Part shown: piece by piece, positions 1,322-20,172 of the stretch
How the letters are laid out: each line of letters starts with the position of its first letter
Numbering within the stretch: the first letter of the stretch is position 1
NCBI RefSeq assembly: GCF_056712565.1
Contig: NZ_CM160072.1
Length of the DNA stretch: 64,000 nucleotides
Reading direction: 5' to 3' (one strand)
The notes under the pieces: generated by a model
What the model was told of the DNA's origin: nothing
Seen by the model: the letters and a program-made list of their open reading frames with translations, nothing else
Database searches by the model: none
Program-made: the position numbers and the translations under genes

Positions 1322-3106
1322 ATGTGGTCAGACAAAGAGTCATCAGAAGACTACCTAAATTTTGGTGAAGTATCTCAGTTAGCCGTGGATGTACTTACCA
1401 CGAAAGATATGTTACCAGTATCTATCGGAATTTTTGGAAACTGGGGGGCAGGTAAATCCTCTCTGTTAAAACTGATAGAGCAAAAACTTGAGCAAGACGA
1501 CAAAGATTGGATTGTTATCAATTTTGACTCTTGGCTCTATCAGGGGTACGACGACACCCGTGCCGCACTTCTTGAAGTCATCGCTACAGAATTGACAAAA
1601 GCTGCTGAAGGTAATTCAGCCCTTATATCAAAAACTAAGAGACTCCTTAGTCGAGTTGATGGTTTTAGAGCTATGGGATTACTAGCTGAGGGTACAGCTT
1701 TAATGGCAGGATTACCTACTGGCGGTTTGCTTTCTAGGGGGATTGGTGCATTAAGAAATATCACCGATGGCATCCAGAGCCAGGAAGAGTATGAGGCTTT
1801 AGGCAATATAGCTAAAGAAGGTAAAGAAACTGCTTGTGGTTTGATTAAACCACAAACAAAAAAAAGCCCCCCTCAGCAGATTGATGCCTTTCGTAAGGAA
1901 TATGGGGAAATTCTAGAAGAACTTGGAAAGCCACTCATTGTGGTAATAGATAACCTAGACCGCTGTCTCCCTGCCAATGCTATCCATACACTTGAAGCTA
2001 TCAGGCTATTCCTTTTCTTGACTAATACAGCCTTTATTATTGCAGCAGATGAGGACATGATTCGCTCTTCTGTGGCTGATTACTTCAAAGGGGCATCACA
2101 GCGCCATCAAATAGATTATCTGGATAAGCTAATCCAGGTTCCTATTCGGGTGCCTAAGGCTGGGGTCCGTGAGATCCGTTCGTATCTGTTCATGCTTTAT
2201 GCCATTGAACATGGCTTAGAAGGCGAAAAAATAACTATGCTCCGTGAGGGCTTAGAGAAGGCGTTACAGCAATCCTGGAAAGATGAACCAATCTCACGTC
2301 AGGAGGCCTTAAAAATGACTGGTGAAGCGGATGATAGCAACCTCGCGCTGGCGTTTGCGCGTGCTGACCGTATTGCTCCCATTTTAGCCAACTCTCCAAT
2401 TATTCATGGTAATCCCAGGATCGTTAAACGCTTGTTGAATGTTGTGAAAATGCGATCTCAAATTGCGAAGCGACGAGCAATGCCTTTGGATGAAGCAATT
2501 ATTACTAAGCTAGTAATTTTTGAACGCTGTGTTGGAGTGGATGGCACCGCTGATTTATATCATCTCGTGGATATTGAACAAGGTGTTCCCCAGATACTTA
2601 AACAGCTTGACGATAATGGCGGTCAAATACCTACTGATGCACCAAAGACATGGACTGATAGTCCAACGACTAAATCTTTCATCAGTCAATGGGCCCAACT
2701 TGAACCTCGTCTTGGTGGGATTGACTTAAGGGCCGCCATATATCTGTCCCGAGAAACTATGCCAATAGGTGCATATGTGGTTGGTTTATCGCCATCTGGA
2801 CGGGAAGTACTAAATGCACTAATTGAATTGAAAAACACTAGTTCTCCTACAGCAGAAAACCTTTTGAAAGCACTTCCTCGTGAGGAGCAAATACCTGTAA
2901 TGGAAGGTTTAATTAACCAGTTACGGCAGGTATCAGATTGGGATCGTAAGCCCAGAGGCTTTTCCGGTGCATGTCTGTTGGCCCGCTACTCAACAGATGC
3001 AGCCAGCATATTAATTCGTTATCTACAGGAATTACAGTTGGGGATGAAACGACCAGCGTGGATGACTGCAGCATTAAAAGATGAACAATGGAATAAGGAC
3101 GCTTAA
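1322..3106 (+). CDS. qatA: KAP-family P-loop NTPase (QatA-like)
   Basis: Walker A GNWGAGKS, FDSWLYQGYDD motif after P-loop, Walker B VVIDNLDRC; 594 aa; first gene of 4-gene overlapping operon. Confidence 0.75.
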   Translation: MWSDKESSEDYLNFGEVSQLAVDVLTTKDMLPVSIGIFGNWGAGKSSLLKLIEQKLEQDDKDWIVINFDSWLYQGYDDTRAALLEVIATELTKAAEGNSALISKTKRLLSRVDGFRAMGLLAEGTALMAGLPTGGLLSRGIGALRNITDGIQSQEEYEALGNIAKEGKETACGLIKPQTKKSPPQQIDAFRKEYGEILEELGKPLIVVIDNLDRCLPANAIHTLEAIRLFLFLTNTAFIIAADEDMIRSSVADYFKGASQRHQIDYLDKLIQVPIRVPKAGVREIRSYLFMLYAIEHGLEGEKITMLREGLEKALQQSWKDEPISRQEALKMTGEADDSNLALAFARADRIAPILANSPIIHGNPRIVKRLLNVVKMRSQIAKRRAMPLDEAIITKLVIFERCVGVDGTADLYHLVDIEQGVPQILKQLDDNGGQIPTDAPKTWTDSPTTKSFISQWAQLEPRLGGIDLRAAIYLSRETMPIGAYVVGLSPSGREVLNALIELKNTSSPTAENLLKALPREEQIPVMEGLINQLRQVSDWDRKPRGFSGACLLARYSTDAASILIRYLQELQLGMKRPAWMTAALKDEQWNKDA

Positions 3107-3858
3107 TGGGAACATCACAATCAAGTAAAGGTCCAGGAGGTGGCTCTCCGCTGGTTCCACCATGGGCTGATGATCAGCCACAGCAACCGTTACCCTCGCC
3201 GCAAGAAAGGAGGTTTGCGCCATTTCGAGAATCGTTGGGAAATGCGGTATCAAATGGAAATCGAGCAGATTTCAGAAAAGCCATAGGGCACTACGCGCGA
3301 AAAGCCTCCGGAGGGAGCAGTAACGCTGCTCGGCGATTAGGGAGTGTCACGCAAGCTGGGGCCGAATTATTTGGGGCTTTAGTGGGAATGCCTTCGGCTC
3401 CCGGAGAACCAAGCATCGATTTGGGCAGTTTGGCAGGCCTTCCATGCGAAATAGCAATATCAACTATTGCTCAAGCTTTAACATCACAGGATGGTGACTC
3501 AGAAAAGATCTGTGCGGCCATGAACCATGCTTTAGTGGAGGCTCTTGATGGCGTAGAAATTTTCGATCCTCAAAAAATAACTGATGGTGTGATTGTTGAC
3601 ACAATGATTGGTTATCTAGCGGAAAGTATTTTCCTTCAGATGGTAATGGATTCTAATAGGGCATGGAACAAAGCAGATACACCTTCAAAGGCAATTCATG
3701 CAGAAATTGAACTCCGGGAATTGATTAAAGTTGTTGTTGATAAACATATGGCACCAAAACTTGCCGGTAACATAAGATCGTTCACACGAAACCAAATGGT
3801 AAAAATTGAACGTCAGGCCATTATTGAGGCCTGGCAAGAATGGGAGGCATACCAGTGA
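3106..3858 (+). CDS. qatB: Protein of unknown function (QatB-like position)
   Basis: 250 aa, Gly/Pro/Ser-rich N-terminus, no recognisable catalytic motif; start overlaps qatA stop, end overlaps next gene. Confidence 0.55.
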   Translation: MGTSQSSKGPGGGSPLVPPWADDQPQQPLPSPQERRFAPFRESLGNAVSNGNRADFRKAIGHYARKASGGSSNAARRLGSVTQAGAELFGALVGMPSAPGEPSIDLGSLAGLPCEIAISTIAQALTSQDGDSEKICAAMNHALVEALDGVEIFDPQKITDGVIVDTMIGYLAESIFLQMVMDSNRAWNKADTPSKAIHAEIELRELIKVVVDKHMAPKLAGNIRSFTRNQMVKIERQAIIEAWQEWEAYQ

Positions 3859-5159
3859 CACAATTAGTTTTCCATCATAAACATCACCATTTGCCGCCAG
3901 CAAGTGAGAAAGTGTTACCTGTTCAGCTATATGGATTAAGTGGTCAGAGGCGCGGAGATATATCTGTTATCGGGAATCCTGCGATTGATCGGATCAGACG
4001 TTTGGGAGTACAGCTTCCAGCTAAGGTCATGGATTTTCTGAGTGTTGCATTAGCAGTAACTGCAGCAGATACTTTCGTTCAGCGTGAAAGTTCCGAGGAT
4101 GGTTGGACCCGCCAATTGTCGTTACGACTCCCCCTTCATGAACCATCCAGATGGATTAGTCTAAAGAAAGAACTTGAGAGTGCTTTGCATTTTCTTAGTG
4201 GAGACATCTGGGATTTCGAATTTTGTGACGATGGTTATGCACCGCCAGAGCCTTATAGCCAGCATTCAAGGCATCGTCTGATTAAGCTAAAAGGGCTTGA
4301 CTGTGTCAGCTTATTTTCAGGAGGTCTGGATTCAGCTATTGGTGCAATAGATCTTCTGGCTGCAGGGCGCGCTCCACTTTTGGTTAGTCATGCTTATAAG
4401 GGGGACAAGTCTCGTCAAGATCAGATCGCTGAAAAATTAAGTGGCCAATTTTCGCGCTTTGAGATTAATGCTGACCCACACATTTATCAAGGCGTGACTG
4501 ATATTACGATGCGAACTCGTAGCCTCAATTTTCTTGCCTTTGCGGCCGTAGGTGCTTGTGCCGTACAAGAGATATCTCAACAAGAAAAGATTGATTTGTT
4601 CGTACCTGAAAATGGATTTATCTCATTAAATGCACCACTTACTCCACGGCGGATAGGTTCGCTGAGCACACGAACAACACATCCACATTTTATTACGAGC
4701 ATACAAAAGATCTTTGATGCGCTCGGTATTTCTTGTCAAATAATCAATCCATATCAGTTTAAGACAAAAGGAAAAATGATCTCCGAATGTTCAAATAAGC
4801 AGCTCTTATCTAAAATTGTGGAAAGTACAGTATCCTGCAGTCATTGGAAACGAATGGGGCAGCAATGTGGGGTATGTATACCGTGTATCATTCGACGAGC
4901 ATCACTTCATGCAGGGGGAATTAGTAGAGATGTTGAATATATTTTCCAGTCCTTAGCTAAAGTAATGAATGAAATAGATCGCAGGGACGACCTGATCGCC
5001 CTTAGGATTGCGATCACGCAGAAATCGACTTTGAAAATAGGTACATGGATTGCCAAAAGTGGCCCTTTGCCTACGGCAGAATTTGATAATTTCAAGCAAG
5101 TATTTAAGGATGGCCTAGATGAGGTTGAAAGCTATTTACTGAGTGAGAACATAGTATGA
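3840..5159 (+). CDS. qatC: QueC-like PP-loop ATPase family protein (QatC-like)
   Basis: PP-loop SGGLDS; C-terminal Cys cluster CSHWKRMGQQCGVCIPC resembling QueC zinc site; about 150 aa extra N-terminal region; 439 aa. Confidence 0.7.
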   Translation: MGGIPVTQLVFHHKHHHLPPASEKVLPVQLYGLSGQRRGDISVIGNPAIDRIRRLGVQLPAKVMDFLSVALAVTAADTFVQRESSEDGWTRQLSLRLPLHEPSRWISLKKELESALHFLSGDIWDFEFCDDGYAPPEPYSQHSRHRLIKLKGLDCVSLFSGGLDSAIGAIDLLAAGRAPLLVSHAYKGDKSRQDQIAEKLSGQFSRFEINADPHIYQGVTDITMRTRSLNFLAFAAVGACAVQEISQQEKIDLFVPENGFISLNAPLTPRRIGSLSTRTTHPHFITSIQKIFDALGISCQIINPYQFKTKGKMISECSNKQLLSKIVESTVSCSHWKRMGQQCGVCIPCIIRRASLHAGGISRDVEYIFQSLAKVMNEIDRRDDLIALRIAITQKSTLKIGTWIAKSGPLPTAEFDNFKQVFKDGLDEVESYLLSENIV

Positions 5160-5881
5160 GCATCGATATGCACTGTCATCTAGACTTATATCCTCGGCCA
5201 GACCTCGTGGCTGAAGAAAGTAAGCGTCGAGGGACTTATATTCTGTCGGTGACAACAACACCTAAAGCATGGCATGGTACTTCTTTATTGGCTAAAGAAA
5301 GTCAACGAATCCGAACTGCTCTTGGGCTACATCCTCAAATCGCGCATCAAAGATCGCATGAGTTAGACCTGTTTGATTCATTGCTTTCGGAAACTAAGTA
5401 TGTAGGGGAAATAGGGCTTGATGGTGGACAGGGATTTAAAGAACATTGGGATATTCAATTGAAAGTGTTCCGACACATTCTCAACAGTGTAAATCGGGCT
5501 GGTGGCAAGATTATGACTATCCATAGTCGGGGAAGTGCATCAGCGGTGCTTGATGAGATTGAAAATATCGATGGGGTGGCAATATTGCATTGGTTCACTG
5601 GAACACCTAAGCAGCTTGAAAGGGCAATTGATTTAGGATGCTGGTTCTCAGTGGGGCCTGCTATGCTCGATACAATAAAGGGTAAGGCCTTAGTTTTGAA
5701 AATACCCAAATCACGCATTCTTACAGAAACAGATGGGCCATTTGCTAAGTTTCGTAATGACCCACTAATGCCATGGGATAGTGGGATTGCAGAGAAACAG
5801 TTAGCCGCATTATGGGGGATTAGTCAGATGGAGGTTAATGCTCAGCTAGTTGATAATTTTAAGGTATTATGTACATCATAA
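5156..5881 (+). CDS. qatD: TatD-family metal-dependent hydrolase/nuclease (QatD-like)
   Basis: N-terminal DMHCHLD (HxH), EIGLD, C-terminal TETDGPF motifs typical of TatD; 241 aa; start overlaps qatC stop. Confidence 0.75.
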   Translation: MSIDMHCHLDLYPRPDLVAEESKRRGTYILSVTTTPKAWHGTSLLAKESQRIRTALGLHPQIAHQRSHELDLFDSLLSETKYVGEIGLDGGQGFKEHWDIQLKVFRHILNSVNRAGGKIMTIHSRGSASAVLDEIENIDGVAILHWFTGTPKQLERAIDLGCWFSVGPAMLDTIKGKALVLKIPKSRILTETDGPFAKFRNDPLMPWDSGIAEKQLAALWGISQMEVNAQLVDNFKVLCTS

Positions 5882-6433: not shown

Positions 6434-7009
6434 TCAGGGCGTTTTCCAGATGACAGCTATAGTAAAAATGATCGCCAGACTGGCGAGAAAGCAGAGCGAA
6501 AGCGGGATTTTGTCCTTCAGTGTCAGGTTCAGCTCTTCTTCAACCCATGCTTTTTCAAATTCACAGTAAAATTTATAATGTGCGTACCAGTTACTTCCGA
6601 AGATCTGTTTGCTGATGACCGTGCCGTAAAACCGGGACATGATAGCGTCGATGGATTGTTGTGTACGCTGATAGTCAAAGTTTGCATCGCTTTTTACGTT
6701 GCGGTAGATGACTTCAAGTTCATTAAAAATTTTGGTCTGCTCAATCCCCGCACTTTCATAACTCTGCTTTTCCGAGTCATAAAACTGAATGTACATTGTA
6801 GCAACACCAAATATAATTAATATCGCGGAAATGACGTTTGTGGCCAGCTCAGGAATAAAAAGGGCGAACACACCGACAGCAAGAGAAATAAAGCTAATCC
6901 AACCGGATGCCTTACAAATCAGATCATAGGTGGCAAAGTTTTTCTTAGCGCCAAATCCAACGTTATAACCATGTCGGGCGATTAATTTCAGCATCTCTGA
7001 TTGCGTCAT
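6434..7009 (-). CDS. Small membrane protein, SLATT-like putative effector partnered with nucleotidyltransferase
   Basis: 191 aa; two central hydrophobic helices (WISFISLAVGVFALFIPELATNVISAILIIFGVATMYIQ) plus C-terminal hydrophobic segment; 7-nt gap after upstream gene. Confidence 0.5.
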   Translation of the reverse strand: MTQSEMLKLIARHGYNVGFGAKKNFATYDLICKASGWISFISLAVGVFALFIPELATNVISAILIIFGVATMYIQFYDSEKQSYESAGIEQTKIFNELEVIYRNVKSDANFDYQRTQQSIDAIMSRFYGTVISKQIFGSNWYAHYKFYCEFEKAWVEEELNLTLKDKIPLSLCFLASLAIIFTIAVIWKTP

Positions 7010-7016
7010 AAAAACC

Positions 7017-8345
7017 TCAGCTTATGGGAACTTCAATCTGGGCCCGGGCAACCACAACCTCATTTTTTATCACATAGCATTCTACCATGTGATCTCCGCG
7101 GAAGTCGGTAGTTTCTTTCTTCGTACAGTAGCCGCCGTCCGAAACGATTTGTCCCCGGATCATATTTCTTCTGCGTGCTTCGTCACCCACGTTCAGTACC
7201 TTCCACATAACGGTGTAGGGTTCCTCTGCCTCCATTTCTGTCAAGTCTGCCCGGAAAAGGAGAGATTTTCGAGCGGAGAGGCGGAATCTTCTGATAAGCA
7301 TCTCCCTCAGGCTTCTGGGAGGGAAACCATCCTGGGTTACGGTACAGTCAAGGTTGAGTGAGTACCTGATATCCACCGGATATTTATCCTCTATAAACTC
7401 TTCGGTATCGGTCCAGGGAACAGCATCTGCCGCATGCGATTCCAGACCAAGACGGGCTTCCATAATACCCACTTTACGTCTGGGGAAGGCTCGTCCGAAC
7501 ACTTTGCGCCAGCGGTCATTTTCACTGGCAGCCCCCTCAGCGTCTAAGGCATCACAACATAATTCATACGCGTGTTTCGCTGCCCGGCCAAACCAGGGAG
7601 ATTTAACACGTACATGCTGATTACTGCCTAACGCGAGATACCTTTCCTTTCTCTCCTCATTTGACAGATATTCAAAAAAGTCTCTGGCGAGGGCTCCCAG
7701 GCTGCCATTTCCGGTATTGTCATAATCTGATGTTGATGAAAGAAAGCGATACGCTAGTGTGTCTATCAGTAAGCCACCCATATTGACGCCATGCAGGTTC
7801 TTCCAGGCTCTGATCATTTTACACAGCTTGCGCAGATTATTGGATTTATCTCGCGAAAATGCGGTCATGGCCGCCTTTTCGTGAAGAGGTTTTGTAATGC
7901 GCCATGCTCCTCCATTATAGCTTTCAGGGAATTTAAAGCTGTCATCATCCTGTCTGAATACAGGTTGAACCTCGACATAAAAGTTTTTAAAGATGATCTG
8001 AACAACCAGTCTGTCCTTTTTCACAGTCTGGTCAGGATATTCTTCCGCCAGAATGTTTCTGACATCTGTAAGCAATGCAGACTGACCATTATCCTTACGG
8101 TTATAATATTCATACTGATTGGGGGGCATAATATAAAGCATATCCAGATCGGATATGCCTTTTATTGCGGTATGTCTGCCTACTGACCCCACTTTCAAGC
8201 GGTTTGCTACCCGGGAACTCGTTCCTCTGAACGCAAGATTTAATGACTTGGTTATTTTTCGATAGTGATAGCTGATCTTTTTTGCCTGTTTGAGGTCAAG
8301 ATTCAAATTTTCAAGAAATTCGCTGAACAATTCCCTGTGGCTCAT
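7017..8345 (-). CDS. SMODS/CD-NTase-like nucleotidyltransferase with about 120-aa C-terminal extension
   Basis: Pol-beta-type NTase signature GSVGRHTAIKGISDLD (GS-x10-[S]DhD) and downstream acidic strand YVEVQP; 442 aa. Confidence 0.55.
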   Translation of the reverse strand: MSHRELFSEFLENLNLDLKQAKKISYHYRKITKSLNLAFRGTSSRVANRLKVGSVGRHTAIKGISDLDMLYIMPPNQYEYYNRKDNGQSALLTDVRNILAEEYPDQTVKKDRLVVQIIFKNFYVEVQPVFRQDDDSFKFPESYNGGAWRITKPLHEKAAMTAFSRDKSNNLRKLCKMIRAWKNLHGVNMGGLLIDTLAYRFLSSTSDYDNTGNGSLGALARDFFEYLSNEERKERYLALGSNQHVRVKSPWFGRAAKHAYELCCDALDAEGAASENDRWRKVFGRAFPRRKVGIMEARLGLESHAADAVPWTDTEEFIEDKYPVDIRYSLNLDCTVTQDGFPPRSLREMLIRRFRLSARKSLLFRADLTEMEAEEPYTVMWKVLNVGDEARRRNMIRGQIVSDGGYCTKKETTDFRGDHMVECYVIKNEVVVARAQIEVPIS

Positions 8346-8448
8346 GGTGTTTCCTTTGGCATGTGAAACATTAGCTTACATTATCATTACACCTTATAAA
8401 AACCAAGATCTTGGGAGGTGAGCGTTCTGCATGGCTTTATGACTTAAA

Positions 8449-8666
8449 CGTAAGCGTTAACGGAGTGCCGTATTGACGCTTATTTATTGGTGAGTACTAC
8501 GTTCCATGGCAGGAGTTCGTCAACTCGGTTGGAAGGCCATTCCGGCAGTACGCTCAGGATATGGCTCAGATACGCTTCCGGATCGATATCGTTCAGTCGG
8601 CAGGTGCCGATCAGCCCGTACAACAGTGCTCCTCGCTCGCCGCCGTGATCGCTGCCGAAGAACATA
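8449..8666 (-). pseudogene. IS66-family transposase 3' fragment with element terminus (GTAAGCG...)
   Basis: 61-aa ORF ending ...LYGLIGTCRLNDIDPEAYLSHILSVLPEWPSNRVDELLPWN resembling IS66 TnpC C-terminus; GTAAGCG terminal motif at about 8449; abutted by IS911. Confidence 0.45.
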
Positions 8667-8685
8667 ATGAATCGCCACGGATAAT

Positions 8686-9498
8686 CTAGACACTTCCGAG
8701 CCGTTGATAATACTGGTTTTCATATTCTGTCGGTGACATCTGTTCGCTAGAACCATGCCGACGCTTACTGTTATAAAACATTTCGATGTAATCAAAAATA
8801 TCACTGCGGGCTTCTTCCCGCATTCCGTAGATCTTTTTCTTTATCCGTTCACGTTTCAACAACTGGAAAAAACTTTCTGCAACCGCATTATCATGGCAGT
8901 TACCGCGACGGCTCATGCTACCCTCCAGGCCGTGTGATTTCAGGAACGACTGCCACTCATGGCTTGTGTACTGACTGCCCTGATCCGAATGAACCAGCAC
9001 CTGTTTTTCGGGATTACGCCGCCATACAGCCATCAGCAGTGCGTTCAGGACAATGTCCTTTGTCATCCGGGATTGCATGGACCAGCCGATAATTTTGCGT
9101 GAGAACAGATCAACAACAACGGCAAGATACAGCCAGCCTTCGTGGGTCCTGATGTAGGTTATGTCCGTTACCCAACGCTCATCAGGAGCATCCGGATTGA
9201 ACTGTCGCTGGAGCCTGTTGGGTGACATGATACTGGCCTCGCCTTTACGTGCCCGCGGGCTTCGGTATCCGACCTGAGCCTTTATTCCGACACGTTTCAT
9301 CAGTCTCCAGACTCTGTTTACTCCGCACTGTTGCCCGCTGTCACGCAGATCCAGATGGATTTTGCGATAACCATAGACGCATCCCGATTCCAGCCAGAAC
9401 TGTTTAATCTGTCCTGTCAGTCTCAGGTCTGCCTGATGGCGTTGTGAATGCGGCTGCTGAAGCCAGGCGTAAAAACCACTGGGATGAACATCCAGCAC
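8686..9498 (-). CDS. IS911 transposase OrfB (DDE integrase domain)
   Basis: 270-aa ORF with IS3-family catalytic region (HSDQGSQYTS.., CHDNAVAESFF). Confidence 0.8.
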   Translation of the reverse strand: MLDVHPSGFYAWLQQPHSQRHQADLRLTGQIKQFWLESGCVYGYRKIHLDLRDSGQQCGVNRVWRLMKRVGIKAQVGYRSPRARKGEASIMSPNRLQRQFNPDAPDERWVTDITYIRTHEGWLYLAVVVDLFSRKIIGWSMQSRMTKDIVLNALLMAVWRRNPEKQVLVHSDQGSQYTSHEWQSFLKSHGLEGSMSRRGNCHDNAVAESFFQLLKRERIKKKIYGMREEARSDIFDYIEMFYNSKRRHGSSEQMSPTEYENQYYQRLGSV

Positions 9499-9554
9499 CC
9501 GACAGAGCAGGCGAACAGGCCAGCAACAGGTGTTGTCACGGATAAAGGCGTACC

Positions 9555-9842
9555 TCAGTCGGACAGCTTTGCGAAGTACGCCGCCTTTTTTAATATTTCA
9601 TTCTCCATTTCAATGCGTTGTAGCTTTTTCCTCAGCTTACGTATTTCGATTTGTTCTGGTGTTATCGGAGAGGCTTTTGGTGTTTTGCCCTGACGCTCAT
9701 CACGCAGTTGTTTGACCCATCTTGTCATTGTGGAAAGGCCAACATCCATAGCTTTGGCGGCATCTGCCACCGTGTATTTCTGGTCAACAACCAGTTGAGC
9801 GGATTCGCGTTTAAACTCTGCGCTAAAATTTCTTTTTTTCAT
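9555..9842 (-). CDS. IS911 OrfA (HTH transposition protein)
   Basis: [49 protein letters not shown].. ; start trimmed to internal Met. Confidence 0.75.
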
Positions 9843-9915
9843 TGGAGCACCTGTGTTGTTCTGAGGTGAGCATATCACCTCTGTTCAGGTGGCCAAATTC
9901 AGTGTGCCACTTCAA

Positions 9916-10289
9916 GCCGGGAGCGGCGTCAGCCAGTCTCCCTTTACCCGCGCTTTTTCGGAAAGCCCACCCCAATGTTTTTCTCCTACACCCCAGCCGG
10001 TCAGCAGGACCTTATCCCCGGTCTGATATTCAGGATGTGAGCTGGCGGACACTGTACCGGCAAAATCAATGCCTGGCACCATTGGAAAGTGCCGGACGAT
10101 AGGCCCGCGGCCCGTAATAGCCAGTGCGTCTTTGTAGTTGATAGATGAACAGTCGACATTGACCTCCACATCCCCCTGTGGCAGCTCGCTTTCAGCGATT
10201 TCAGCAATTTGGGCACTGTGGCGACCATACATCTTACTGATTAATAAGGATTTAAACATTTTTTTCTCGTCTTTCTGGTTTGATGTCAT
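9916..10289 (-). pseudogene. N-terminal fragment of YhdH/AcuI-like NADPH-dependent quinone oxidoreductase, truncated by IS911
   Basis: 125-aa ORF with [34 protein letters not shown] motifs of MDR superfamily; ends at the IS911 terminus. Confidence 0.6.
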
Positions 10290-10859
10290 TGAGCTATAAA
10301 GTAGTCAATAAACAATATTGACCGATCGTCTAATAATCAACGCTGATATCCCAGTGTTTGTCAGAAAACAAGAATTGCTTTTCTTTTCATCAGGTTAAAT
10401 CTATCTTTTTTGATTTATATCAAACCAGATTCGGTCTTCAATTATATAGGCATCAATGTTAGCGGTCCTACAAGATACGCAGTCGATGCTTCAGGGCGTA
10501 CTGATGAAATAAAACAAGTAGGCTGAGATTAGTTGGTCTGCTCATCGCTCACAGCGGACCTTCAGCTTCGTTAGCCAAGCGCTGACATAGTTACCGATGT
10601 AGCGTGTTAATCTGTCGGGAGCATAGCCGAAATCACTTAACCCATTAGACTTCACCTAAAACTGCAAAAATTACCGTCTTTGTCACACTCACCGAGTTTA
10701 ATCAAACTAACACTGTACATAGTGCGAACAAGAGCCAACCAGAAAGACTGTTCAGCATCAACAGTGAAGTTTTTCCCCGCTACTTCCCCGCAATTCTTCC
10801 GCAGTTTTCCCACTAGAGAGTTCGACACATCCCTTGCATACCAACGCTTTGATTCAAAT

Positions 10860-11627
10860 CTCGGTAGTGCATCCAATTAGTAGAATATGTGTTTTTCGAT
10901 AAATGCTCCGATCACTTTTTCGTGGATCTCAACTGAGCGTGAGAAGCAGATTGTTTACGAGCCAACCGCTTAATGTGGGTGCGTAGCGTCAGATTATTAC
11001 GCTCAATGCGTTGGGTGAATATTTTGCCGGTCAGATGCTTATTCTTCGGCACCACCCGGCCATAGCTGTCCCAGTCATCGCTGGTGAGCATGCCGATGTT
11101 GAAGGGTGTAAGCAGTGCCAGTAGCTCCCGGCACGTTTGATCGGTTCGGGGACCAAAAGTGTAGGCCAGTACACCGCCTGTTTTGGTGTTGTACGCGTAC
11201 CAGAGCCAGTGTAGCCGGGCTTTACTGCCAACGTAGCTCCATTGCTCATCAAGCTCGCAGATAAGCGCCACATCAGCATGGGCAACAGGCGAAGAAGTTA
11301 TTTGCGTTGGTGCGAGTTTTTTAAAGTCCGGATGATGGTGTTAATACCAATTTTCAGTGTCCTGGCGGTATCGCGAACCCCGGCACCATTAAAGGCCATT
11401 TCAGTGATCATCTCTTTCATACCCGGCTTACGTGCTTGATAAGTATAAGTGAGCTGAAACACACGGTGGCAGTCACGGCAGCGAAATCTGTCACGGCCTT
11501 TAGGGTTCTGACCATGGCGGTAAACCTGAGCTGACTGACAACGGGGACAATGAATATTAACGCTGGCCATGAGATAACCTCAAAAGCCCGTATTATACAT
11601 CAGATTCAACCAATTAGAGGCATCACC
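10860..11627 (-). mobile_element. Divergent IS1-family insertion sequence
   Basis: InsA-like (11298..11570) and InsB-like (10912..11271) ORFs; ends resemble IS1 IRs (GGTAGTGCATCCAA... / ...GGCATCACC); InsA only about half identical to the canonical IS1 InsA at 17483. Confidence 0.65.
11298..11570 (-). CDS. insA: IS1-family InsA-like protein (divergent isoform)
   Basis: 90 aa, Zn-finger CPRCQS..CRDCHR and HTH resembling IS1 InsA. Confidence 0.7.
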   Translation of the reverse strand: MASVNIHCPRCQSAQVYRHGQNPKGRDRFRCRDCHRVFQLTYTYQARKPGMKEMITEMAFNGAGVRDTARTLKIGINTIIRTLKNSHQRK

Positions 11628-11822
11628 CTTTCCTACATTCGTAGGACTTTGATTACATATAGCAAGGGTTAATTCTTATATACATAGAATAAATTAGGAA
11701 TATAATGAATTTTATCGTGACGACCTTATTTATAATTAATTTATATTGTCAGAGAAATTAGTGTCCACAACATGAAGCCTTACAAAGAGATTCTATGATT
11801 TAAAAAAAATAAGAGCCAGCTT

Positions 11823-13292
11823 ATGCATATCGATTCGACTGAAAAAAATAATAAACAAAAGTTGGGCTTGCTTGCGCTAACATCCATTGTCGTGAGCTCG
11901 ATGATCGGCAGCGGCGTTGACGGACTCCCCCAGAATATGGCGGAGAATTCTGCCGTGGGCCCGGTGGCGATAGCATGGATAGTCTGTGGTATCGGCATGT
12001 TTTTCATCTCCAGAACTTTTATCGTGCTGTCAAACATTAGACCTGATCTCCAGTCAGGAGTTTATATGTATGCCCGGGAAGGGTTCGGCCGATTTACGGC
12101 ATTTAACGTCGCCTGGGGCTACTGGCTGATGACTATATTCAGCAACGTCGCCTTTGCCATTATGGTGATGGATACGCTGAATTATTTCTTACCAGGTGAT
12201 TTCAAGGGAGGGAACAATATTCCTTCCGTTATCGGTGCCTCTTTGCTGATATGGGGATTCAACTTTTTAGTCCTCTCCGGTACCCGCATTGCCGGGTCGA
12301 TTAACATCGTCGGCACGCTGGCCAAACTGATCCCGCTGGTGGCCTTTATTATTATTCTCATGCTGTTTATGAAGTACACCACGTTCGCAGATAACGTCTG
12401 GGGGCACAGCGCGAGTAAGGCCAGTCAGGACCTAGGCTCTATTTTCTCACAGGTAACTTCACCGCTTAGCGTGGCACTCTGGAGCTTCATCGGCGTTGAG
12501 GGGGCTGTCGCTCTTTCCGGTCGGGCCAAAAATAAACGCGACGTGGGTAAAGCCACATTCATTGGCTTCGTTGTATCACTGATTATCTGTCTGCTGGTCT
12601 CCATCCTGCCGTTTGGCGTGCTGACTCAACATGAGCTCAGCGCAATTCCAACCCCATCCACCGCCGGTATTCTGAAGATTGTTGTCGGTGAATGGGGGAA
12701 GATTATGATTATCTTGGGGGTGCTGATTTCGGTGCTTACCAGCTGGCTGGCGTGGACCATCATCTGCGCCGAACTGCCTATGGTGGCCGCGCAGAACGGC
12801 ACATTCCCGAAACCGTTCAGCAAAAAAAATGTGAAGGGTTCGGCCTCGGTTTCGCTTTATATAAGCAGTGCGTTTATGCAAATCGTCGTACTTCTGGTCT
12901 ACTTTTCTAACGATGCCTGGCTTGCAATGCTGGCTATCTCTACCCTGACCGTTTTACCTGCGTATTTAATGACCACGGCATACCTGTTTAAACTATGTAT
13001 TAGCGGCGAGTATGCCAGCTATACCACGAATCACAGCCGCAGCGCCGCGCTGGTCAGCAGTATTATCGGCTTTGTATTCTGCCTGTTTATGTTCTACGCC
13101 AGTGAAATCAAATATCTGGCGATGGTTCCGGTGCTGCTTACGCTGGGCGTGCCCCTGTTTATCTGGGCAAGAAAAAAAGACGATCGCGCAGATAAAATAT
13201 TTACGCTACGCGAACTGGCATTTTTTATTTTACTGCTGGTCCTCGACATCATTGTTTTTATTCTACTGCATTATAAAACGATACATTTTTAG
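11823..13292 (+). CDS. APC-superfamily basic amino acid antiporter, ArcD/YdgI-like (paralog 1)
   Basis: 489 aa polytopic; N-terminal KLGLLALTSIVVSSMIGSGV..LPQNMA and GVYMYAREGFG, FIGVEGAV..SGRAKNKRDVGKAT motifs as in arginine:ornithine-type antiporters. Confidence 0.7.
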   Translation: MHIDSTEKNNKQKLGLLALTSIVVSSMIGSGVDGLPQNMAENSAVGPVAIAWIVCGIGMFFISRTFIVLSNIRPDLQSGVYMYAREGFGRFTAFNVAWGYWLMTIFSNVAFAIMVMDTLNYFLPGDFKGGNNIPSVIGASLLIWGFNFLVLSGTRIAGSINIVGTLAKLIPLVAFIIILMLFMKYTTFADNVWGHSASKASQDLGSIFSQVTSPLSVALWSFIGVEGAVALSGRAKNKRDVGKATFIGFVVSLIICLLVSILPFGVLTQHELSAIPTPSTAGILKIVVGEWGKIMIILGVLISVLTSWLAWTIICAELPMVAAQNGTFPKPFSKKNVKGSASVSLYISSAFMQIVVLLVYFSNDAWLAMLAISTLTVLPAYLMTTAYLFKLCISGEYASYTTNHSRSAALVSSIIGFVFCLFMFYASEIKYLAMVPVLLTLGVPLFIWARKKDDRADKIFTLRELAFFILLLVLDIIVFILLHYKTIHF

Positions 13293-13396
13293 TCCAGATT
13301 AATTCACAGCAAGTTAAGGTGACGATAATGTCTGTTTCTTGGGCATGACATCCTCACAGTTAAATACTATCTGAACAGTAACCGTGGAGACACCTA

Positions 13397-15766
13397 ATGA
13401 AATTTAACCACAATCTTTTATTTATTTCCTCACAATATCTTGATGGCGACAACCCTTCGCAGCAGGTACTGGAAGAGCTTCAAACCGAACTCGCGGAACG
13501 CGGTTTTAAAATTCATATCACGCACCAGATCTCTGATGGATTAAAAATCATCGAAAAAAGCCCCCAATACAGCGGGATTGGTTTTTACTGGGAGCCAGAC
13601 AATCCGACCTTTGCAGAAGAGCTACAGCACTTTATCAGCATATTCCGCAAAAGAAATGCCACGACGCCGCTGATAATTTTCTCAGAACAGAATATTACCG
13701 ATCGTATCCCACTCGACGTCTTAAAAGAGGTCAGCGAATATGTTTATCTGTTCTCTGAATCCGCAGCCTTCACTGCCAATCGACTGTACTCCTTAGTCCA
13801 CCGCTATGCGGATAAGCTTCTTCCTCCCTACTTTAAAACCCTTAAGGACTTTACCGAGGACGGTGACTATTACTGGGACTGCCCGGGGCATATGGGGGGA
13901 ATGGCCTATCTGAAACATCCTGTTGGCATTGAGTTCATTAACTTCTTTGGCGAAAACATGATGCGCGCTGATATTGGCGTGGCTACCGCGGAGATGGGGG
14001 ATTATCTGATCCACGCCGGACCGCCTAAAAAATCGGAAGAAATTGCGGCCCGACTGTTTGGCTCTGATTGGACCTTCTACGGTGTTTCCGGCTCATCGGG
14101 GTCGAACCGTATTGTGGCCCAGGCTGCGGTTGGCGCAGATGAAATTGCCATTATTGACCGAAATTGCCACAAGTCACTTAATCATGGCCTGACCTTGTCT
14201 CAGGCAAGGCCGGTTTACCTGAAACCTACCCGCAACGCGTGGGGGCTGATTGGGCCTATCCCGACCGGGCGCCTGAAGAAGGCCAGTATTGATGCGCTGG
14301 TGGCAAACAGCCGACTGGCATCTGGTGCGGTCAGCCAGTCCCCGTCCTACGCCGTGGTAACCAACTGCACCTATGATGGCTTCTGTTATAACGTGAACGA
14401 TGTAGTCAGACACCTGGGTGAAAGCGCACCGCGCATCCATTTTGATGAAGCATGGTATGCCTATGCGCGTTTCCATCCGCTATACCAGAGTCGCTATGCA
14501 ATGGACGCGGAGGAAACGCCAAATCGTCCAACCCTATTCGCCGTACAGTCCACCCATAAAATGCTGCCCTCACTCTCCATGGCCTCAATGATTCATGTGA
14601 AGAAAAGCGATCGCGCGCCGCTTAATTTCGATGACTTTAACGATGCCTTTATGATGCACGGCACGACCTCACCCTACTACCCGATCATTGCATCAATTGA
14701 TGTGGCAGTAAGCATGATGGAGGGTGAATCCGGTTATTCGCTTGTGCAGGAGTCAATTGAAGAAGCGATTGCCTTCCGTAAAGCCGTGGTCAGCGTCAAG
14801 CGCCAGCTCCAGGAGCAGGAAGGTGGTGACGCCTGGTTCTTCGATGTGCTTCAGCCAACCGAAGTGCAGGACAGCGATTCTGGGCAGCGATACAGTTTTG
14901 AAGAGGCACCCGTATCGCTGCTGAGCCACAGCGCCGACTGCTGGTCGCTGCGCTCCGGTGAGCGCTGGCACGGTTTTGCCGATGATGATCTGGTCGAAAC
15001 CAACAGTATGCTCGATCCAGTAAAAGTGACCCTGACTTGTCCAGGGATCGGCCCGAAGGGAGAATACCAGAAAAACGGTATTCCGGGATATTTGCTGACC
15101 CGTTTTCTCGATGACCGTCGCATTGAAATTGCCCGTACTGGTGACTACACCGTGCTGATCCTGTTCTCCGTCGGCATCACCAAAGGCAAATGGGGAACTC
15201 TGATTGAAAGCCTGCTGGCCTTTAAAAAGCATTACGACAATGACGATCTGGCCACAGATGCTATCCCGTCGCTGAAAGCGCATTCTCCACACTACGACAC
15301 GCTAACCCTCAAGGAGCTATGTCAGATAATGCATGAAAAAATGGATGAGCTGGAGCTGATGTCGCATATCAACGACGCGGTAAACACCGATCCGGAACCA
15401 GTTATGACCCCGGCAGAAGCCTATCAGAAAGTCGTACGCTACAAAACCGAGCATATCCGGCTGGATGATTTTAGCGGCAGAATTGCCGCCAGCATGCTCG
15501 TCCCATATCCCCCAGGCATTCCTGTACTGATGCCGGGCGAACGGATGCCGCAAGGTAACAAGGGCATTATTGGCTATCTGCGCGCCCTGCAGGAATTCGA
15601 TAAGCAATTCCCAGGTTTTGAACATGAGATCCAGGGCGTTAACGTCGATGAAAACGGGGACTTCTGGGTCAGAGCGATTGTGGAAGAAGAACGCGATGGG
15701 CAGTCGCTACCCGGCCACATAACCTTTAAACGCCAGGTCTCTGGTATTAAAAAGGGCCGCCAGTAG
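13397..15766 (+). CDS. PLP-dependent Orn/Lys/Arg decarboxylase, AdiA-like (biodegradative arginine decarboxylase family)
   Basis: 789 aa; DRNCHKS, VTNCTYDGFCYN, HFDEAWYAYARF, QSTHKMLP (PLP lysine), GKWGTLIESLLAFKKHYD closely parallel recalled AdiA motifs, less so CadA/SpeF. Confidence 0.8.
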   Translation: MKFNHNLLFISSQYLDGDNPSQQVLEELQTELAERGFKIHITHQISDGLKIIEKSPQYSGIGFYWEPDNPTFAEELQHFISIFRKRNATTPLIIFSEQNITDRIPLDVLKEVSEYVYLFSESAAFTANRLYSLVHRYADKLLPPYFKTLKDFTEDGDYYWDCPGHMGGMAYLKHPVGIEFINFFGENMMRADIGVATAEMGDYLIHAGPPKKSEEIAARLFGSDWTFYGVSGSSGSNRIVAQAAVGADEIAIIDRNCHKSLNHGLTLSQARPVYLKPTRNAWGLIGPIPTGRLKKASIDALVANSRLASGAVSQSPSYAVVTNCTYDGFCYNVNDVVRHLGESAPRIHFDEAWYAYARFHPLYQSRYAMDAEETPNRPTLFAVQSTHKMLPSLSMASMIHVKKSDRAPLNFDDFNDAFMMHGTTSPYYPIIASIDVAVSMMEGESGYSLVQESIEEAIAFRKAVVSVKRQLQEQEGGDAWFFDVLQPTEVQDSDSGQRYSFEEAPVSLLSHSADCWSLRSGERWHGFADDDLVETNSMLDPVKVTLTCPGIGPKGEYQKNGIPGYLLTRFLDDRRIEIARTGDYTVLILFSVGITKGKWGTLIESLLAFKKHYDNDDLATDAIPSLKAHSPHYDTLTLKELCQIMHEKMDELELMSHINDAVNTDPEPVMTPAEAYQKVVRYKTEHIRLDDFSGRIAASMLVPYPPGIPVLMPGERMPQGNKGIIGYLRALQEFDKQFPGFEHEIQGVNVDENGDFWVRAIVEEERDGQSLPGHITFKRQVSGIKKGRQ

Positions 15767-15840
15767 GCGGGGGAAAGAACAATACCGTCGGATCGCCTGC
15801 AATCCGACGGCAATATTATAGAATAGCTGAGGGAAACGTT

Positions 15841-17340
15841 ATGGCAGAGCAATCTTCAGATGTAAAAAATAGTGACAATAGCGCCGGAGGACATAAGCTG
15901 GGGCTTATATCCCTCATCGCTATTGTCGTTAGCTCCATGCTGGGAGGCGGCGTTTTCAGTCTGCCGCAAAACACGGCGGCCTCTTCTGCACTAGGGCCAG
16001 TAATCATTGCATGGATTATTGCCGGGATCGGTATTTATTTTATCGCAAACTCCTTTCGCGTACTATCAGATCTGCGCCCGGACCTTCAGGCTGGAGTGTA
16101 TATGTATGCCCAGGAAGGTTTTGGTTCCTTTATTGGCTTTAACGTCGCCTGGGGCTACTGGCTGATGACCGCATTTGGCAACGTTGCCTTTGCGGTAATT
16201 TTAATGGATGCTTTTAATCAGTTTATGCCGGGGGTTTTTACGGATGGTAATAATCTGAACTCCATTATCTGCGGCTCAGTGCTGATCTGGGGCTATAATT
16301 TTCTTGTTCTGTCCGGGACGAAAGTGGCCGGATTTGTTAACACCTTGGGAACCATCGCCAAGCTCGTCCCTCTGATCCTATTCGTATTACTGCTGGGTGT
16401 GCTGATCGATTATTCGGACCTGTTTAAAAACTTTTGGGGAGAATCACCCGCGATCCTCAGTGGCAACGGAAATGACGCCGCACCAGTATCGCTGCTGTCT
16501 CAGATTCTGGCACCGATGACCGTAACGCTCTGGGCCTTTATTGGCGTCGAGGGAGCGGTTGTTCTATCCGGACGTGCCAAAAATAAACAGGACGTAGGGA
16601 AAGCCACACTGATCGGCTTTCTGCTGGCGCTAATTATTTATATGTTAATGTCCATTCTGCCGTTCGGTGTAATGCCTCAGGCAGAACTAGCGCAGGTCAG
16701 TAACCCCTCTACCGCAGGCGTGCTCGCCCACGTTGTCGGTCAGTGGGGCGACTGGCTGATGAGCGCGGGGCTGATTATTTCTGTTCTGGCCGGCTGGCTT
16801 GCCTGGACCATGCTATGCGCTGAAATACCGATGGTCGCAGGACAGAAAGGCGCTTTCCCGCGCGCGTTTGCCCGAACGAACAGTAAACAGGCGGCCAATG
16901 TGTCACTGTGGGTTAGTAGCTTTGTGATGCAGGCGGCCATGTTACTTGTTTATTTTTCAAATAATGCTTGGACCACCATGTATAATATCAGTGCGCTGAT
17001 GGTTGTTCCGGCCTATATTACCACCACGCTGTATCTGACCAGTATTTGCAGAAACGGAAAATATGATCAGTATGCAAAAAAAGGCCGCAGGCTGGCTTTG
17101 TCCAGCGGTGTTTTAGGCTCGCTATTCTGTCTGTTTATTCTTTACGCCAGCCAGATTGAGTATGTTGCATTAATTCCTATCCTGTTGACCTGTGGTCTGC
17201 CGGTCTTTATCTGGTCAAGAAAAGAAAAAAATGATGGTCAGCCGATATTTACCAAAAAAGAGCTGATTTATCTGATTATGCTGTTGCTGTGCGATATTAT
17301 CGTCGTTGCCCTGTTTATTGGTGGATATTTAAAGGTATAA
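15841..17340 (+). CDS. APC-superfamily basic amino acid antiporter, ArcD/YdgI-like (paralog 2)
   Basis: 499 aa; same motif set as 11823..13292 (KLGLISLIAIVVSSMLGGGVFSLPQN..). Confidence 0.7.
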   Translation: MAEQSSDVKNSDNSAGGHKLGLISLIAIVVSSMLGGGVFSLPQNTAASSALGPVIIAWIIAGIGIYFIANSFRVLSDLRPDLQAGVYMYAQEGFGSFIGFNVAWGYWLMTAFGNVAFAVILMDAFNQFMPGVFTDGNNLNSIICGSVLIWGYNFLVLSGTKVAGFVNTLGTIAKLVPLILFVLLLGVLIDYSDLFKNFWGESPAILSGNGNDAAPVSLLSQILAPMTVTLWAFIGVEGAVVLSGRAKNKQDVGKATLIGFLLALIIYMLMSILPFGVMPQAELAQVSNPSTAGVLAHVVGQWGDWLMSAGLIISVLAGWLAWTMLCAEIPMVAGQKGAFPRAFARTNSKQAANVSLWVSSFVMQAAMLLVYFSNNAWTTMYNISALMVVPAYITTTLYLTSICRNGKYDQYAKKGRRLALSSGVLGSLFCLFILYASQIEYVALIPILLTCGLPVFIWSRKEKNDGQPIFTKKELIYLIMLLLCDIIVVALFIGGYLKV

Positions 17341-17482
17341 GTCCGAGTTAAATCTTTACTGGGCTAGTAATGCCGCCTTTTAAACAAGAAGGGCGGCAAT
17401 CTTACTGAAATTAGTATGCTGCAAATCGGTAATGCTGCCAACTTACTGATTTAGTGTATGATGGTGATTTTAAGGTGCTTGC

Positions 17483-17758
17483 GTGGCTTCCATTTCCATC
17501 AGATGTCCTTCCTGCTCCGCTACTGAAGGCGTGGTGCGTAACGGCAAAAGCACTGCCGGACATCAGCGCTATCTCTGCTCTCATTGCCGTAAAACATGGC
17601 AACTGCAGTTCACTTACACCGCTTCTCAACCCGGTACGCACCAGAAAATCATTGATATGGCCATGAATGGCGTTGGATGCCGGGCAACTGCCCGCATTAT
17701 GGGCGTTGGCCTCAACACGATTTTACGTCACTTAAAAAACTCAGGCCGCAGTCGGTAA
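17483..17758 (+). CDS. insA: IS1 InsA
   Basis: [40 protein letters not shown]... 91 aa. Confidence 0.9.
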
Positions 17759-18180
17759 CCTCGCGCATACAGCCGGGCAGTGACGTCATCGTCTGCGCGG
17801 AAATGGGCGAACAGTGGGGCTATGTCGGGGCTAAATCGCGCCAGCGCTGGCTGTTTTACGCGTATGACAGGCTCCGGAAGACGGTTGTTGCGCACGTATT
17901 CGGTGAACGCACTATGGCGACGCTGGGGCGTCTTATGAGCCTGCTGTCACCCTTTGACGTGGTGATATGGATGACGGATGGCTGGCCGCTGTATGAATCC
18001 CGCCTGAAGGGAAAGCTGCACGTAATCAGCAAGCGATATACGCAGCGAATTGAGCGGCATAACCTGAATCTGAGGCAGCACCTGGCACGGCTGGGACGGA
18101 AGTCGCTGTCGTTCTCAAAATCGGTGGAGCTGCATGACAAAGTCATCGGGCATTATCTGAACATAAAACACTATCAATAA
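17677..18180 (+). CDS. insB: IS1 InsB (transposase frame; expressed as InsAB' by frameshift)
   Basis: 167-aa ORF overlapping insA in -1 frame. Confidence 0.85.
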
Positions 18181-18646
18181 GTTGGAGTCATTACCGACAT
18201 TGTCAAGATGAACAGCATGCATTGTAACAGTCTGCAGTTTATGTTCTCCGTGGATAATTATTCTTATTTCATGGTGATTTTTGTTATATTTTAAAATGCA
18301 TATCTCACCATTTAGTTTTTTATATCACAAAAACATAGTGATGCAATCATACACACCTGCCTCTATCGTACAGAGAAAACGGGCAATTATTTGTATTATT
18401 CCTTCATAACGACTTCAGTATACAGGATGACCGCAACCACGCTCCTTCTCCTGCCCGGGCGAAGTGCCTGGTTCAGACAATTACATTAACTGGCTGAAAT
18501 TTTCGACGCGGTACAAGCCTCCCTGCTTTGAAAGGTGGCCTGGCGCTGCAATTTTTTACTTTTGTTTTTGTATCCGGAAAAACACATCTGCAAGAATCAT
18601 TATTCTCTTGCCTGAAGCTATCCAGCATCCTCAGATATTTCGCACT

Positions 18647-20157: not shown

Positions 20158-20172
20158 GGTAATGACTCCAAC

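Follow-up and report, generated by a model that had tools for sequence, protein, structure and literature searches.

The IS3-family element at 8668-9914 of the 64,000-nucleotide stretch of Escherichia coli DNA analysed here (the window) is a chimera of two insertion sequences, IS911 and ISX, joined at the frameshift site. ISX is the name used here for a 1229-bp IS3-family element, an example of which lies on the Klebsiella plasmid NZ_CP151724 (WP_098141133.1). The original prediction had described this element as an intact IS911 at 8667-9915; its open reading frames, slippery site and ends are intact, but 915 bp of it, comprising orfB and the right end, are ISX at 99.5% identity. We regard as probable, including its IS30 history, a reading in which the locus consists of immobile IS remnants within the tRNA-Phe genomic island of a B2-type E. 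coli, with the hybrid at its centre. E. coli APEC O1 and ATCC 11775 match the window at 100% identity and have the stretch in an island adjacent to tRNA-Phe, and the identical APEC O1 sequence is annotated alike by PGAP; our element names derive from PGAP annotations and direct alignments. The hybrid excepted, the locus is a commonplace heap of dead mobile-element remnants, and its biology is mostly known already, with a single modest new detail. All four features that had been predicted (IS66 fragment, IS3-family element, acuI-like fragment and divergent IS1) are present, on the minus strand and with coordinates that differ by only 1-3 bases:

8450-8667, minus strand: 3'-terminal 218 bp of an ISEc23-like IS66-family element (profile matches, ISEc23 alignment)
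8483-8665, minus strand: final 61 codons of tnpC within the IS66 remnant, stop codon at 8480-8482
ending at 8450: IS66 terminal inverted repeat, GTAAGCG on the plus strand
8668-9914, minus strand: chimeric IS3-family element, 1247 bp (segment alignments, domains, PGAP)
8668-9582, minus strand: ISX-derived right part, 915 bp, with the last orfA codons, the entire orfB (DDE catalytic core) and the right inverted repeat
9585-9914, minus strand: IS911-derived left part, 330 bp, with the left inverted repeat, the orfA start (ATG at 9842) and the A6G heptamer
9555-9842, minus strand: hybrid orfA
8686-9842, minus strand: hybrid OrfAB fusion by -1 frameshift, 385 aa, reconstructed
9585-9591, minus strand: A6G slippery heptamer, A AAA AAG
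9915-10259, minus strand: 5' fragment of an acuI/yhdH-like acrylyl-CoA reductase gene (MDR oxidoreductase), 115 of about 327 codons (AcuI profile)
10260-10862, no strand: non-coding spacer
10863-11627, minus strand: divergent IS1-family element, 765 bp, a pseudogene (NCBIfam transpos_IS1 on both open reading frames)
11298-11570, minus strand: insA of the divergent IS1
11316-11322, minus strand: A6C slippery site of the divergent IS1, AAAAAAC

The chimeric nature of the element is evident from its segment identities. In an element numbering that runs one base longer than the true 1247 bp, positions 1-334 share 97.9% identity with the intact IS911 of strain ST70, about 99% with the IS911 copies of CRE10 and K-12, and 50.3% with ISX, whereas positions 335-1248 are 99.5% identical to ISX and 46.9% identical to intact IS911; the two bases between the parts (GC, 9583-9584) are common to both parents. 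By the ISfinder convention, isoforms have about 95% or more nucleotide identity. The full hybrid is 60.7% identical to intact IS911 overall, and the 97.9% of its first 334 positions falls to 46.9% over the other 914. The left end, read from 9914, is of the IS911 type (TGAAGTGGCACAC...), and the right end, read from 8668, is of the ISX type (TGAATCGCCACGG...); the paired TGAAGTGG... repeats of an IS911 isoform are thus absent, the right end being TGAATCGCCACGGATAATC... as in ISX. A search for target-site duplications had been suggested as a check; the 3-bp (rarely 4-bp) one of IS911 is absent at the hybrid (GCT on one flank, TTA on the other). Membership of the IS3 family is clear: orfA and orfB lie in the 0 and -1 frames with an A6G-type heptamer, from which the 385-aa OrfAB can be reconstructed; OrfAB contains the HTH_Tnp_1, HTH_21, rve and rve_2 domains, i.e. 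both the helix-turn-helix and the DDE core; NCBIfam transpos_IS3 matches with E=8e-100; and TG...CA termini are present, TGAA opening both ends. A plain IS30 insertion in a true IS911, considered for the break at position 333, was ruled out by alignment of genuine IS911 copies. That the element is simply an ordinary intact IS911, flanked by the results of successive insertions or deletions, is hardly credible. Its left end, orfA and A6G site are indeed 98-99% IS911, both reading frames are open and PGAP calls an intact transposase ('IS3 family transposase, programmed frameshift'). Past the slippery site, however, the sequence and the right inverted repeat belong to ISX, and PGAP reserves 'IS3-like element IS911' for the genuine copies; the alignment by itself already refutes this explanation.

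The sequences on either side of the hybrid are unrelated because two different insertion sequences were fused, probably through IS30. The original prediction correctly took these flanks to imply several events; it assigned both to one IS911, but each flank arrived with a different parent. On one side lies the 3' end of an IS66-family element, predicted at 8449-8666 with the last 60 codons and terminus and now placed one base further on with 61 codons of tnpC. The 61-aa C-terminus of TnpC matches Pfam DDE_Tnp_IS66_C (PF13817, E=1.8e-16) and positions 348-385 of the 387 in NCBIfam transpos_IS66. The remnant shares 96.3% identity with ISEc23 and 95.4% with IS682, and homology with an ISEc23 copy in another genome ends precisely at the terminal ...GCTTAC. 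Only these 218 bp are left, without tnpA, tnpB or the left end; at the same locus, strain ETEC1701 lacks the IS3-family element and carries a longer IS66 remnant (444 bp), again beside these defence genes. On the other side, the acuI-like gene is cut by the IS911 end. The fragment matches positions 1-114 of the 325 in NCBIfam acrylyl_AcuI (E=1.4e-50), scoring 172 bits against a curated cut-off of 440 for the full-length protein, and Pfam finds ADH_N but no NADPH-binding domain. The predicted 125 codons of a YhdH/AcuI-like reductase correspond to a mechanical open reading frame that starts with the ATG at 10289 and runs into the insertion sequence to a stop at 9912; the truncated gene is real, but only about 115 of these codons belong to it. 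An intact 327-aa acuI-like gene with a TetR/AcuR regulator is present on the Enterobacter plasmid pE76_001, and E. coli strain 600029 retains both halves of the gene, after which come acuR and genes for a DUF2254 protein and a BCCT transporter. As far as about 10551 the spacer represents sequence upstream of the acuI-like gene, where homology with the Enterobacter plasmid ends at query position 312. A separate module, 10544-10862, abuts the IS1 variant; in ECO3183 it has the IS1 variant on one side and an IS66 tnpA on the other. A 74-aa open reading frame at 10652-10876 had no family match among the NCBIfam and Pfam profiles, and an Rfam scan of 8300-11800 gave no match at E<=1.

Both parents of the hybrid and an intermediate between them exist. 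In CFT073 the acuI and IS66 flanks are those of the window, but IS30 separates the two parts of the element (...AAAAAAGGCTAC|IS30|GCGGCGTAC...). The IS911::IS30 parent is found in K-12 (GGCTAC|IS30|ACCGCGCTC, with the 2-bp duplication AC), where the yjh locus has the same IS911|IS30 left junction in the CFT073 orientation. The ISX::IS30 parent is found on a Klebsiella plasmid, where GC is duplicated and the right junction is exactly that of CFT073; ISX-left|IS30 also occurs in K-12 CP4-6 and in strain MB57. The IS911-specific TAC is retained in CFT073 and absent from the window, whose junction (AAAAAAG|GCGGCGTAC) is 3 bp shorter than that of either parent. IS30 is known for hot-spot targeting, a 2-bp duplication and deletions that proceed via IS30 intermediates (PMC9333248). 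We propose that the hybrid likely arose by two separate insertions, fusion across IS30 and loss of IS30 with 5 bp. IS911 would have entered the acuI-like gene and, separately, ISX would have entered tnpC of an ISEc23-like IS66 element adjoining the CD-NTase/SLATT/Qat defence module. IS30 would then have entered both elements at one hot spot, 5 bp beyond the -1 frameshift heptamer. The two IS30 copies could then have recombined, or IS30 could have mediated an intramolecular event; either would have fused the IS911 left part to the ISX right part, with loss of the remainder of acuI, acuR, the downstream genes and the 5' portion of the IS66 element, and CFT073 would still be in this state. Finally, the lineage of the window would have dropped IS30 and the 5 bp between two GC dinucleotides, which would have left an in-frame hybrid with intact slippery site and OrfAB and with ends from two different elements. 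The order of these events and the mechanism of recombination are what we infer from the junctions, and three bases together with parsimony suggest that the CFT073 form preceded that of the window. The reciprocal junctions (IS66 with the ISX left end, and the IS911 right end with the 3' part of acuI), sought with a synthetic 396-nt query, gave no spanning match in the complete E. coli genomes, and we therefore infer the two original insertions rather than observe them. Our literature searches returned no paper describing the IS911/ISX hybrid and no usable sequence information on an IS30 consensus.

The principal competitor to fusion across IS30 is direct recombination between IS911 and ISX at their shared ATATTAAAAAA without IS30, the IS30 of CFT073 being a later, independent insertion at the hot spot. 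The parents have about 11 bp in common at the slippery site, and IS30 does enter this site repeatedly, independently and in both orientations. An in-register crossover would nonetheless not lose 3 bp, insertion of IS30 into the AAAAAAGGCGGCG of the window cannot yield the left flank GGCTAC of CFT073, and the IS30 of CFT073 is flanked by AC and GC and not by the 2-bp duplication that a simple insertion gives; we consider direct recombination improbable. Less probable still, and indeed very doubtful, is that the hybrid is a functional, distinct insertion sequence that transposed as a unit and later lost its duplication through flanking deletions. The intact OrfA, OrfAB, slippery site, DDE core and TG...CA termini would suit such an element, as would the modular appearance of IS3-family elements, among which the ISX right part is joined to at least three different left parts. 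Against it stand the essentially single locus, the mismatched ends and the CFT073 intermediate, according to which the flanks were already present while the two halves were still apart. Misassembly is common in IS-rich regions, but an assembly or sequencing artefact joining repeats is effectively excluded, as the same 3.5-kb arrangement occurs in 189 independently sequenced complete genomes.

The hybrid is seen at essentially a single locus. Roughly 376 E. coli genomes contain the acuI fragment, among them genomes with the hybrid without IS30, with the IS30-containing form and with further rearranged forms. The full-length hybrid is present in 197 of 5426 E. coli genomes, in 189 of them with the whole 3.5-kb context; the other eight hold less than 80% of it, and a rare transposed copy among these is possible. 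As one piece the hybrid was found in none of 72,556 plasmids; near-full-length matches on plasmids were either tandem elements or composites of the form ISEc52-left|IS30'|ISX-right. The exact 41-nt junction, which is matched in the window itself, had no match in 100,044 species-representative genomes; this counts for little, as the representative of E. coli evidently does not carry the locus. ISX itself is widespread on plasmids of Klebsiella, Enterobacter, Citrobacter and E. coli, with full-length copies on 704 plasmids and in 187 E. coli genomes; we assume that it may be ISEhe3-like. The hybrid combines an IS911-type N-terminal DNA-binding domain and left end with an ISX-type right end, and for this reason it is probably immobile.

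The remaining feature is a divergent IS1-family element, with the ends GGTGATGCC... (from 11627) and GGTAGTGCATCC... (from 10863). Two IS1 lineages do coexist in the window, as was predicted: the DNA of this element is 53% identical to that of the two canonical copies, InsB is 43% identical, and alignment of InsA, expected to be about half identical, gave 45% (39/87). The zinc-binding domain IS1_IS1595_Zn is matched in InsA and accompanied by the A6C site and an InsB' frame. Neither this element nor the IS66 fragment turned out to be an unrelated sequence, and annotation and alignment uphold the core of the original prediction. The element is not a simple copy, however, but a pseudogene, marked 'frameshifted' by PGAP: an A4 run has lost one A (10954-10956), and this 1-bp deletion relative to two intact copies breaks the InsB' frame, truncating and altering the last ~24 InsB residues, so that no intact InsAB' frame remains. 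The element has no 8-9-bp target-site duplication (GTAGGAAAG on one flank, GAGATTTGA on the other), and no target-site duplication was found at the hybrid or at either canonical IS1 copy of the window. An intact plasmid copy of 766 bp carries the 8-bp duplication TGTGGCTA on both sides, and strain 600029 has an intact 766-bp copy at the same chromosomal site. The divergent IS1 of the window is an old insertion, orthologous to that in strain 600029; it later lost one base in situ and is dead. We presume that its lineage may be IS1N (nu-xi); a literature search for this name returned no usable sequence information.

The main value of these results lies in annotation and in the reconstruction of how the island was assembled; they alter the understanding of no system. 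The hybrid illustrates that an insertion sequence may look intact, have open frames and still be a defunct fusion of two elements, and the joint between a metabolic module (decarboxylase/antiporters, acuI) and a defence module (CD-NTase/SLATT, Qat) appears to be the product of IS30-mediated recombination. The repeated entry of IS30 at the frameshift site of IS3-family elements is a neat natural case of one insertion sequence targeting another, of possible interest to transposon specialists. A broader idea, which we hold to be speculative and rather unlikely, is that IS30 systematically targets the bases just past the frameshift heptamer of several IS3-family elements (IS911, ISEc52-like, ISX and a third), inactivating them and at the same time providing portable homology that could shuffle DNA-binding (left) and catalytic (right) modules into in-frame hybrid transposases; the element of the window would be one of these, perhaps with partial (one-ended or trans-complemented) activity.

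The AcuI/YhdH acrylyl-CoA reductase is matched over its N-terminal 114 residues by the AcuI equivalog profile, and related loci have acuR adjoining; unlike these, the gene in the window is truncated to 35% of its length and non-functional. The last 218 bp of ISEc23 and IS682 (IS66 family), including the terminal repeat, are 95-96% alike in the window, where about 9% of such an element is left. The divergent IS1 shares with IS1 (IS1A/IS1B type) and with the divergent lineage of plasmids such as pOkiPb01679_3 a size of ~766 bp, GGTGATG/GGTAGTG ends, the InsA zinc finger, the A6C site and InsB'. It differs from canonical IS1 in its InsA (45%) and DNA (53%) identity, and from its active relative, which made an 8-bp duplication, in having no duplication and a 1-bp deletion. 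The hybrid resembles IS911 in the left inverted repeat, the N-terminal HTH and leucine-zipper region of orfA and the A AAA AAG -1 heptamer (98-99%), but its orfB and right inverted repeat are only ~47% identical and it has no 3-bp duplication; it is a hybrid and not an isoform. To ISX it is 99.5% identical in orfB, the DDE core and the right inverted repeat, whereas the own left end (TGAATCGCCACGGGTTTAAC...) and own orfA (MSGKRYPEEFK...) of ISX are 50% identical to the left part of the window, and the junction of the window is one codon (GCT) short. The closest parallels to the fusion are K-12 IS911'-IS30A-IS911'' (CP4-6, 5.8-6.1 min) and the CFT073 locus, where IS30 lies at the same dinucleotide, 5 bp past the heptamer (PMC9333248); the window differs from both in having neither IS30 nor the 5 bp, and the right-hand piece in K-12 is of the IS911/ISEc52 type and not ISX.

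The stack of mobile-element scars put forward in the original prediction is real and largely as described, with one substantive correction, in that the supposedly intact IS911 is a hybrid of IS911 and ISX (our label for an unnamed IS3-family element, carried for example by Klebsiella plasmid NZ_CP151724), and one minor correction, in that the divergent IS1 is a pseudogene. The region is ordinary mobile-element debris within a well-sequenced pathogenicity/defence island, and its features are as follows.

8450-8667, minus strand: IS66-family fragment, 61-codon ORF with the IS66 C-terminal domain
8668-9914, minus strand: IS911/ISX hybrid, from alignments with IS911, ISEc52 and the Klebsiella-plasmid element
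9915-10259: acuI-like gene remnant (AcuI/YhdH-like reductase), 115 codons kept
10863-11627, minus strand: divergent IS1, with IS1-type ends, InsA zinc finger, A6C slippery site and InsB' frame
17428-18195, plus strand: canonical IS1
20158-20925, minus strand: canonical IS1
Minus strand (PGAP): partial 'transposase domain' gene
Minus strand (PGAP): IS3-family transposase with programmed frameshift
Minus strand (PGAP): partial alcohol-dehydrogenase-N gene
Minus strand (PGAP): 'frameshifted' IS1-family transposase

In a search of E. coli genomes, genuine IS911 copies (PGAP 'IS3-like element IS911') matched only the first ~333 bases of the hybrid, and other elements matched it only from ~332 onward. 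Alignment with an intact IS911 (strain ST70), ISEc52 and the IS3-family element of the Klebsiella plasmid gave, in a segment numbering that runs one base longer than the true one, 97.9% identity to IS911 and 50.3% to ISX over the left 334 positions, against 46.9% and 99.5%, respectively, over the remaining 914. ISX is itself an IS of 1229 bp that has a left end and an orfA of its own; full-length copies are present in 704 plasmids and in 187 genomes of E. coli. The switch from IS911 to ISX lies at the -1 frameshift heptamer, where the window reads ATATTAAAAAAG/GCGGCGTAC, IS911 ...AAAAAAGGCTACCGCG and ISX ...AAAAAAAGCTGCGGCGTAC. The seam is 3 bp shorter than in each parent and the reading frame is kept; OrfA (95 aa) and OrfAB (385 aa) are both open and contain HTH_Tnp_1, HTH_21 and rve domains. 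The left and right ends derive from different elements and the flanks (GCT vs TTA) show no duplication, from which we infer that the hybrid is probably immobile. At full length it occurs in 197 of 5426 complete E. coli genomes, 189 of which have the entire 3.5-kb context in common; a search of 72,556 plasmids yielded no copy in one piece, and species-representative genomes lack the exact junction.

Against the IS66 transposase profile (387 positions), the ORF of the IS66 fragment aligns with positions 348-385; at the DNA level the fragment shares 96.3% identity with ISEc23 and 95.4% with IS682. Homology to an ISEc23 copy at an unrelated locus stops precisely at ...CGTTAACGCTTAC, which by this alignment marks the terminus of the IS66 element at 8450. 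In ETEC1701, more of this tnpC survives (444 bp) in front of the same defence genes, and there is no IS3-family element ahead of them, which indicates that the IS66 element adjoined the defence module before being cut in the window. On the other side, the acuI-like gene is truncated as predicted, but the 125 codons originally assigned to it are those of a mechanical ORF. Strain 600029 retains both halves of the gene, split there by IS100; next come acuR and genes for a DUF2254 protein and a BCCT transporter. On an Enterobacter plasmid the gene is intact (327 aa) and accompanied by a TetR/AcuR regulator. The spacer at 10544-10862 does not belong to the acuI locus as seen on that plasmid; ECO3183 has it between the IS1 variant and an IS66 tnpA. 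A 74-aa ORF of the spacer, which extends into the IS1 end, has no family match. An Rfam search of 8300-11800 found nothing.

Two IS1 lineages do coexist, as had been claimed: the divergent IS1 is 53% identical to the two canonical copies in DNA, 45% in InsA and 43% in InsB. Its boundaries are fixed by the 8-bp duplication borne by an intact 766-bp plasmid relative. The window's copy is short of one A in an A4 run (10954-10956), so that the final ~24 codons of InsB are out of frame. In strain 600029 the divergent IS1 occupies this site intact, between identical flanks; the deletion therefore occurred in situ, and loss of the duplication predates it. The canonical copies differ at 1 base in 768 and neither has a target-site duplication. 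Their InsB reads CAEMGEQW, compared with CAEMDEQW in K-12 IS1B and CELDEQW in the divergent IS1, with Gly in place of a conserved Asp that may be part of the DDE triad; judged from this residue, both may be catalytically dead, despite the PGAP label 'intact'.

The surrounding 3.5 kb matches the chromosomes of E. coli APEC O1, ATCC 11775 and many ST95-type strains at 100% identity, and at least 80% of it is present in 189 of the 5426 genomes. The island adjoins tRNA-Phe (24162-24237), and an integrase gene neighbours the tRNA. One flank of the region holds CD-NTase-like and SLATT genes and a Qat system, the other an antiporter-decarboxylase-antiporter cluster. The CD-NTase-like nucleotidyltransferase, which scores under the cut-off of CBASS cyclase profiles, and SLATT_6 (6434-8345, minus strand) directly abut the IS66 terminus and form with the Qat genes a small defence island, also present in ETEC1701 and CFT073. 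A lone 39-bp sequence (1222-1260), 92% identical to the IS911-type left-end region of the hybrid, lies just upstream of qatA-D (about 1322-5881). The cluster at 11823-17400 (basic amino acid antiporter, Orn/Lys/Arg decarboxylase, second antiporter) is bracketed by the divergent and a canonical IS1 in a layout like a composite transposon, but the bounding ISs differ and duplications are absent.

The origin of the hybrid, a neat detail of limited interest, is suggested by CFT073, which has the same acuI and IS66 junctions with IS30 at the seam (...AAAAAAGGCTAC/IS30/GCGGCGTAC...). The bases bordering this IS30 are AC vs GC, without duplication, so it is not a simple insertion. Each of the two parental arrangements occurs elsewhere: IS911 with IS30 and the duplication AC in K-12 CP4-6 (GGCTAC/IS30/ACCGCGCTC), described as IS30A interrupting IS911 (PMC9333248), and ISX with IS30 and the duplication GC on a Klebsiella plasmid, where the orientation is the same and the right junction is exactly that of CFT073. 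The CFT073-type left junction recurs at the K-12 yjh locus, and ISX-left joined to IS30 in K-12 (IS30B) and strain MB57. Given both parental forms and the non-duplicated CFT073 flanks, the simplest history is one in which IS911 would have inserted into acuI and ISX, separately, into the IS66 tnpC; IS30 would then have entered each, and recombination across IS30, or an IS30-mediated deletion, would have produced the CFT073 form. Loss of IS30 and 5 bp between two GC dinucleotides would have given the window form, a direction indicated by the IS911-specific TAC kept in CFT073 and absent in the window. The reciprocal junctions of this fusion were not found in complete E. coli genomes. Beyond the acuI/IS911-left junction of RIVM_C037884 (7022-10604 of comparison sequence L005) come a fragment of IS30, further IS3-family fragments and a group II intron. 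The locus has undergone additional, independent rearrangement in other lineages.

IS30 lies 5 bp past the slippery heptamer not only in IS911 and ISX but also in an ISEc52-like element and a third IS3-family orfA fragment, in both orientations, across K-12, CFT073, MB57, IncY plasmids and a Klebsiella plasmid, making the frameshift site of IS3-family elements a recurrent IS-in-IS hot spot for IS30. The sites, in comparison-sequence coordinates, are:

L012
L013: 3120-3140, 4340-4380
L017: 4300-4330
L018: 3300-3330, 4530-4560
L019: 3600-3620, 4825-4845
L020: 570-590, 1795-1810

Use of the same dinucleotide in IS911, the ISEc52-like element (IncY plasmids) and ISX, in both orientations, points to a hot spot, and this recurrent site fits the known hot-spot preference of IS30, its 2-bp duplication and its capacity to make deletions (PMC9333248).
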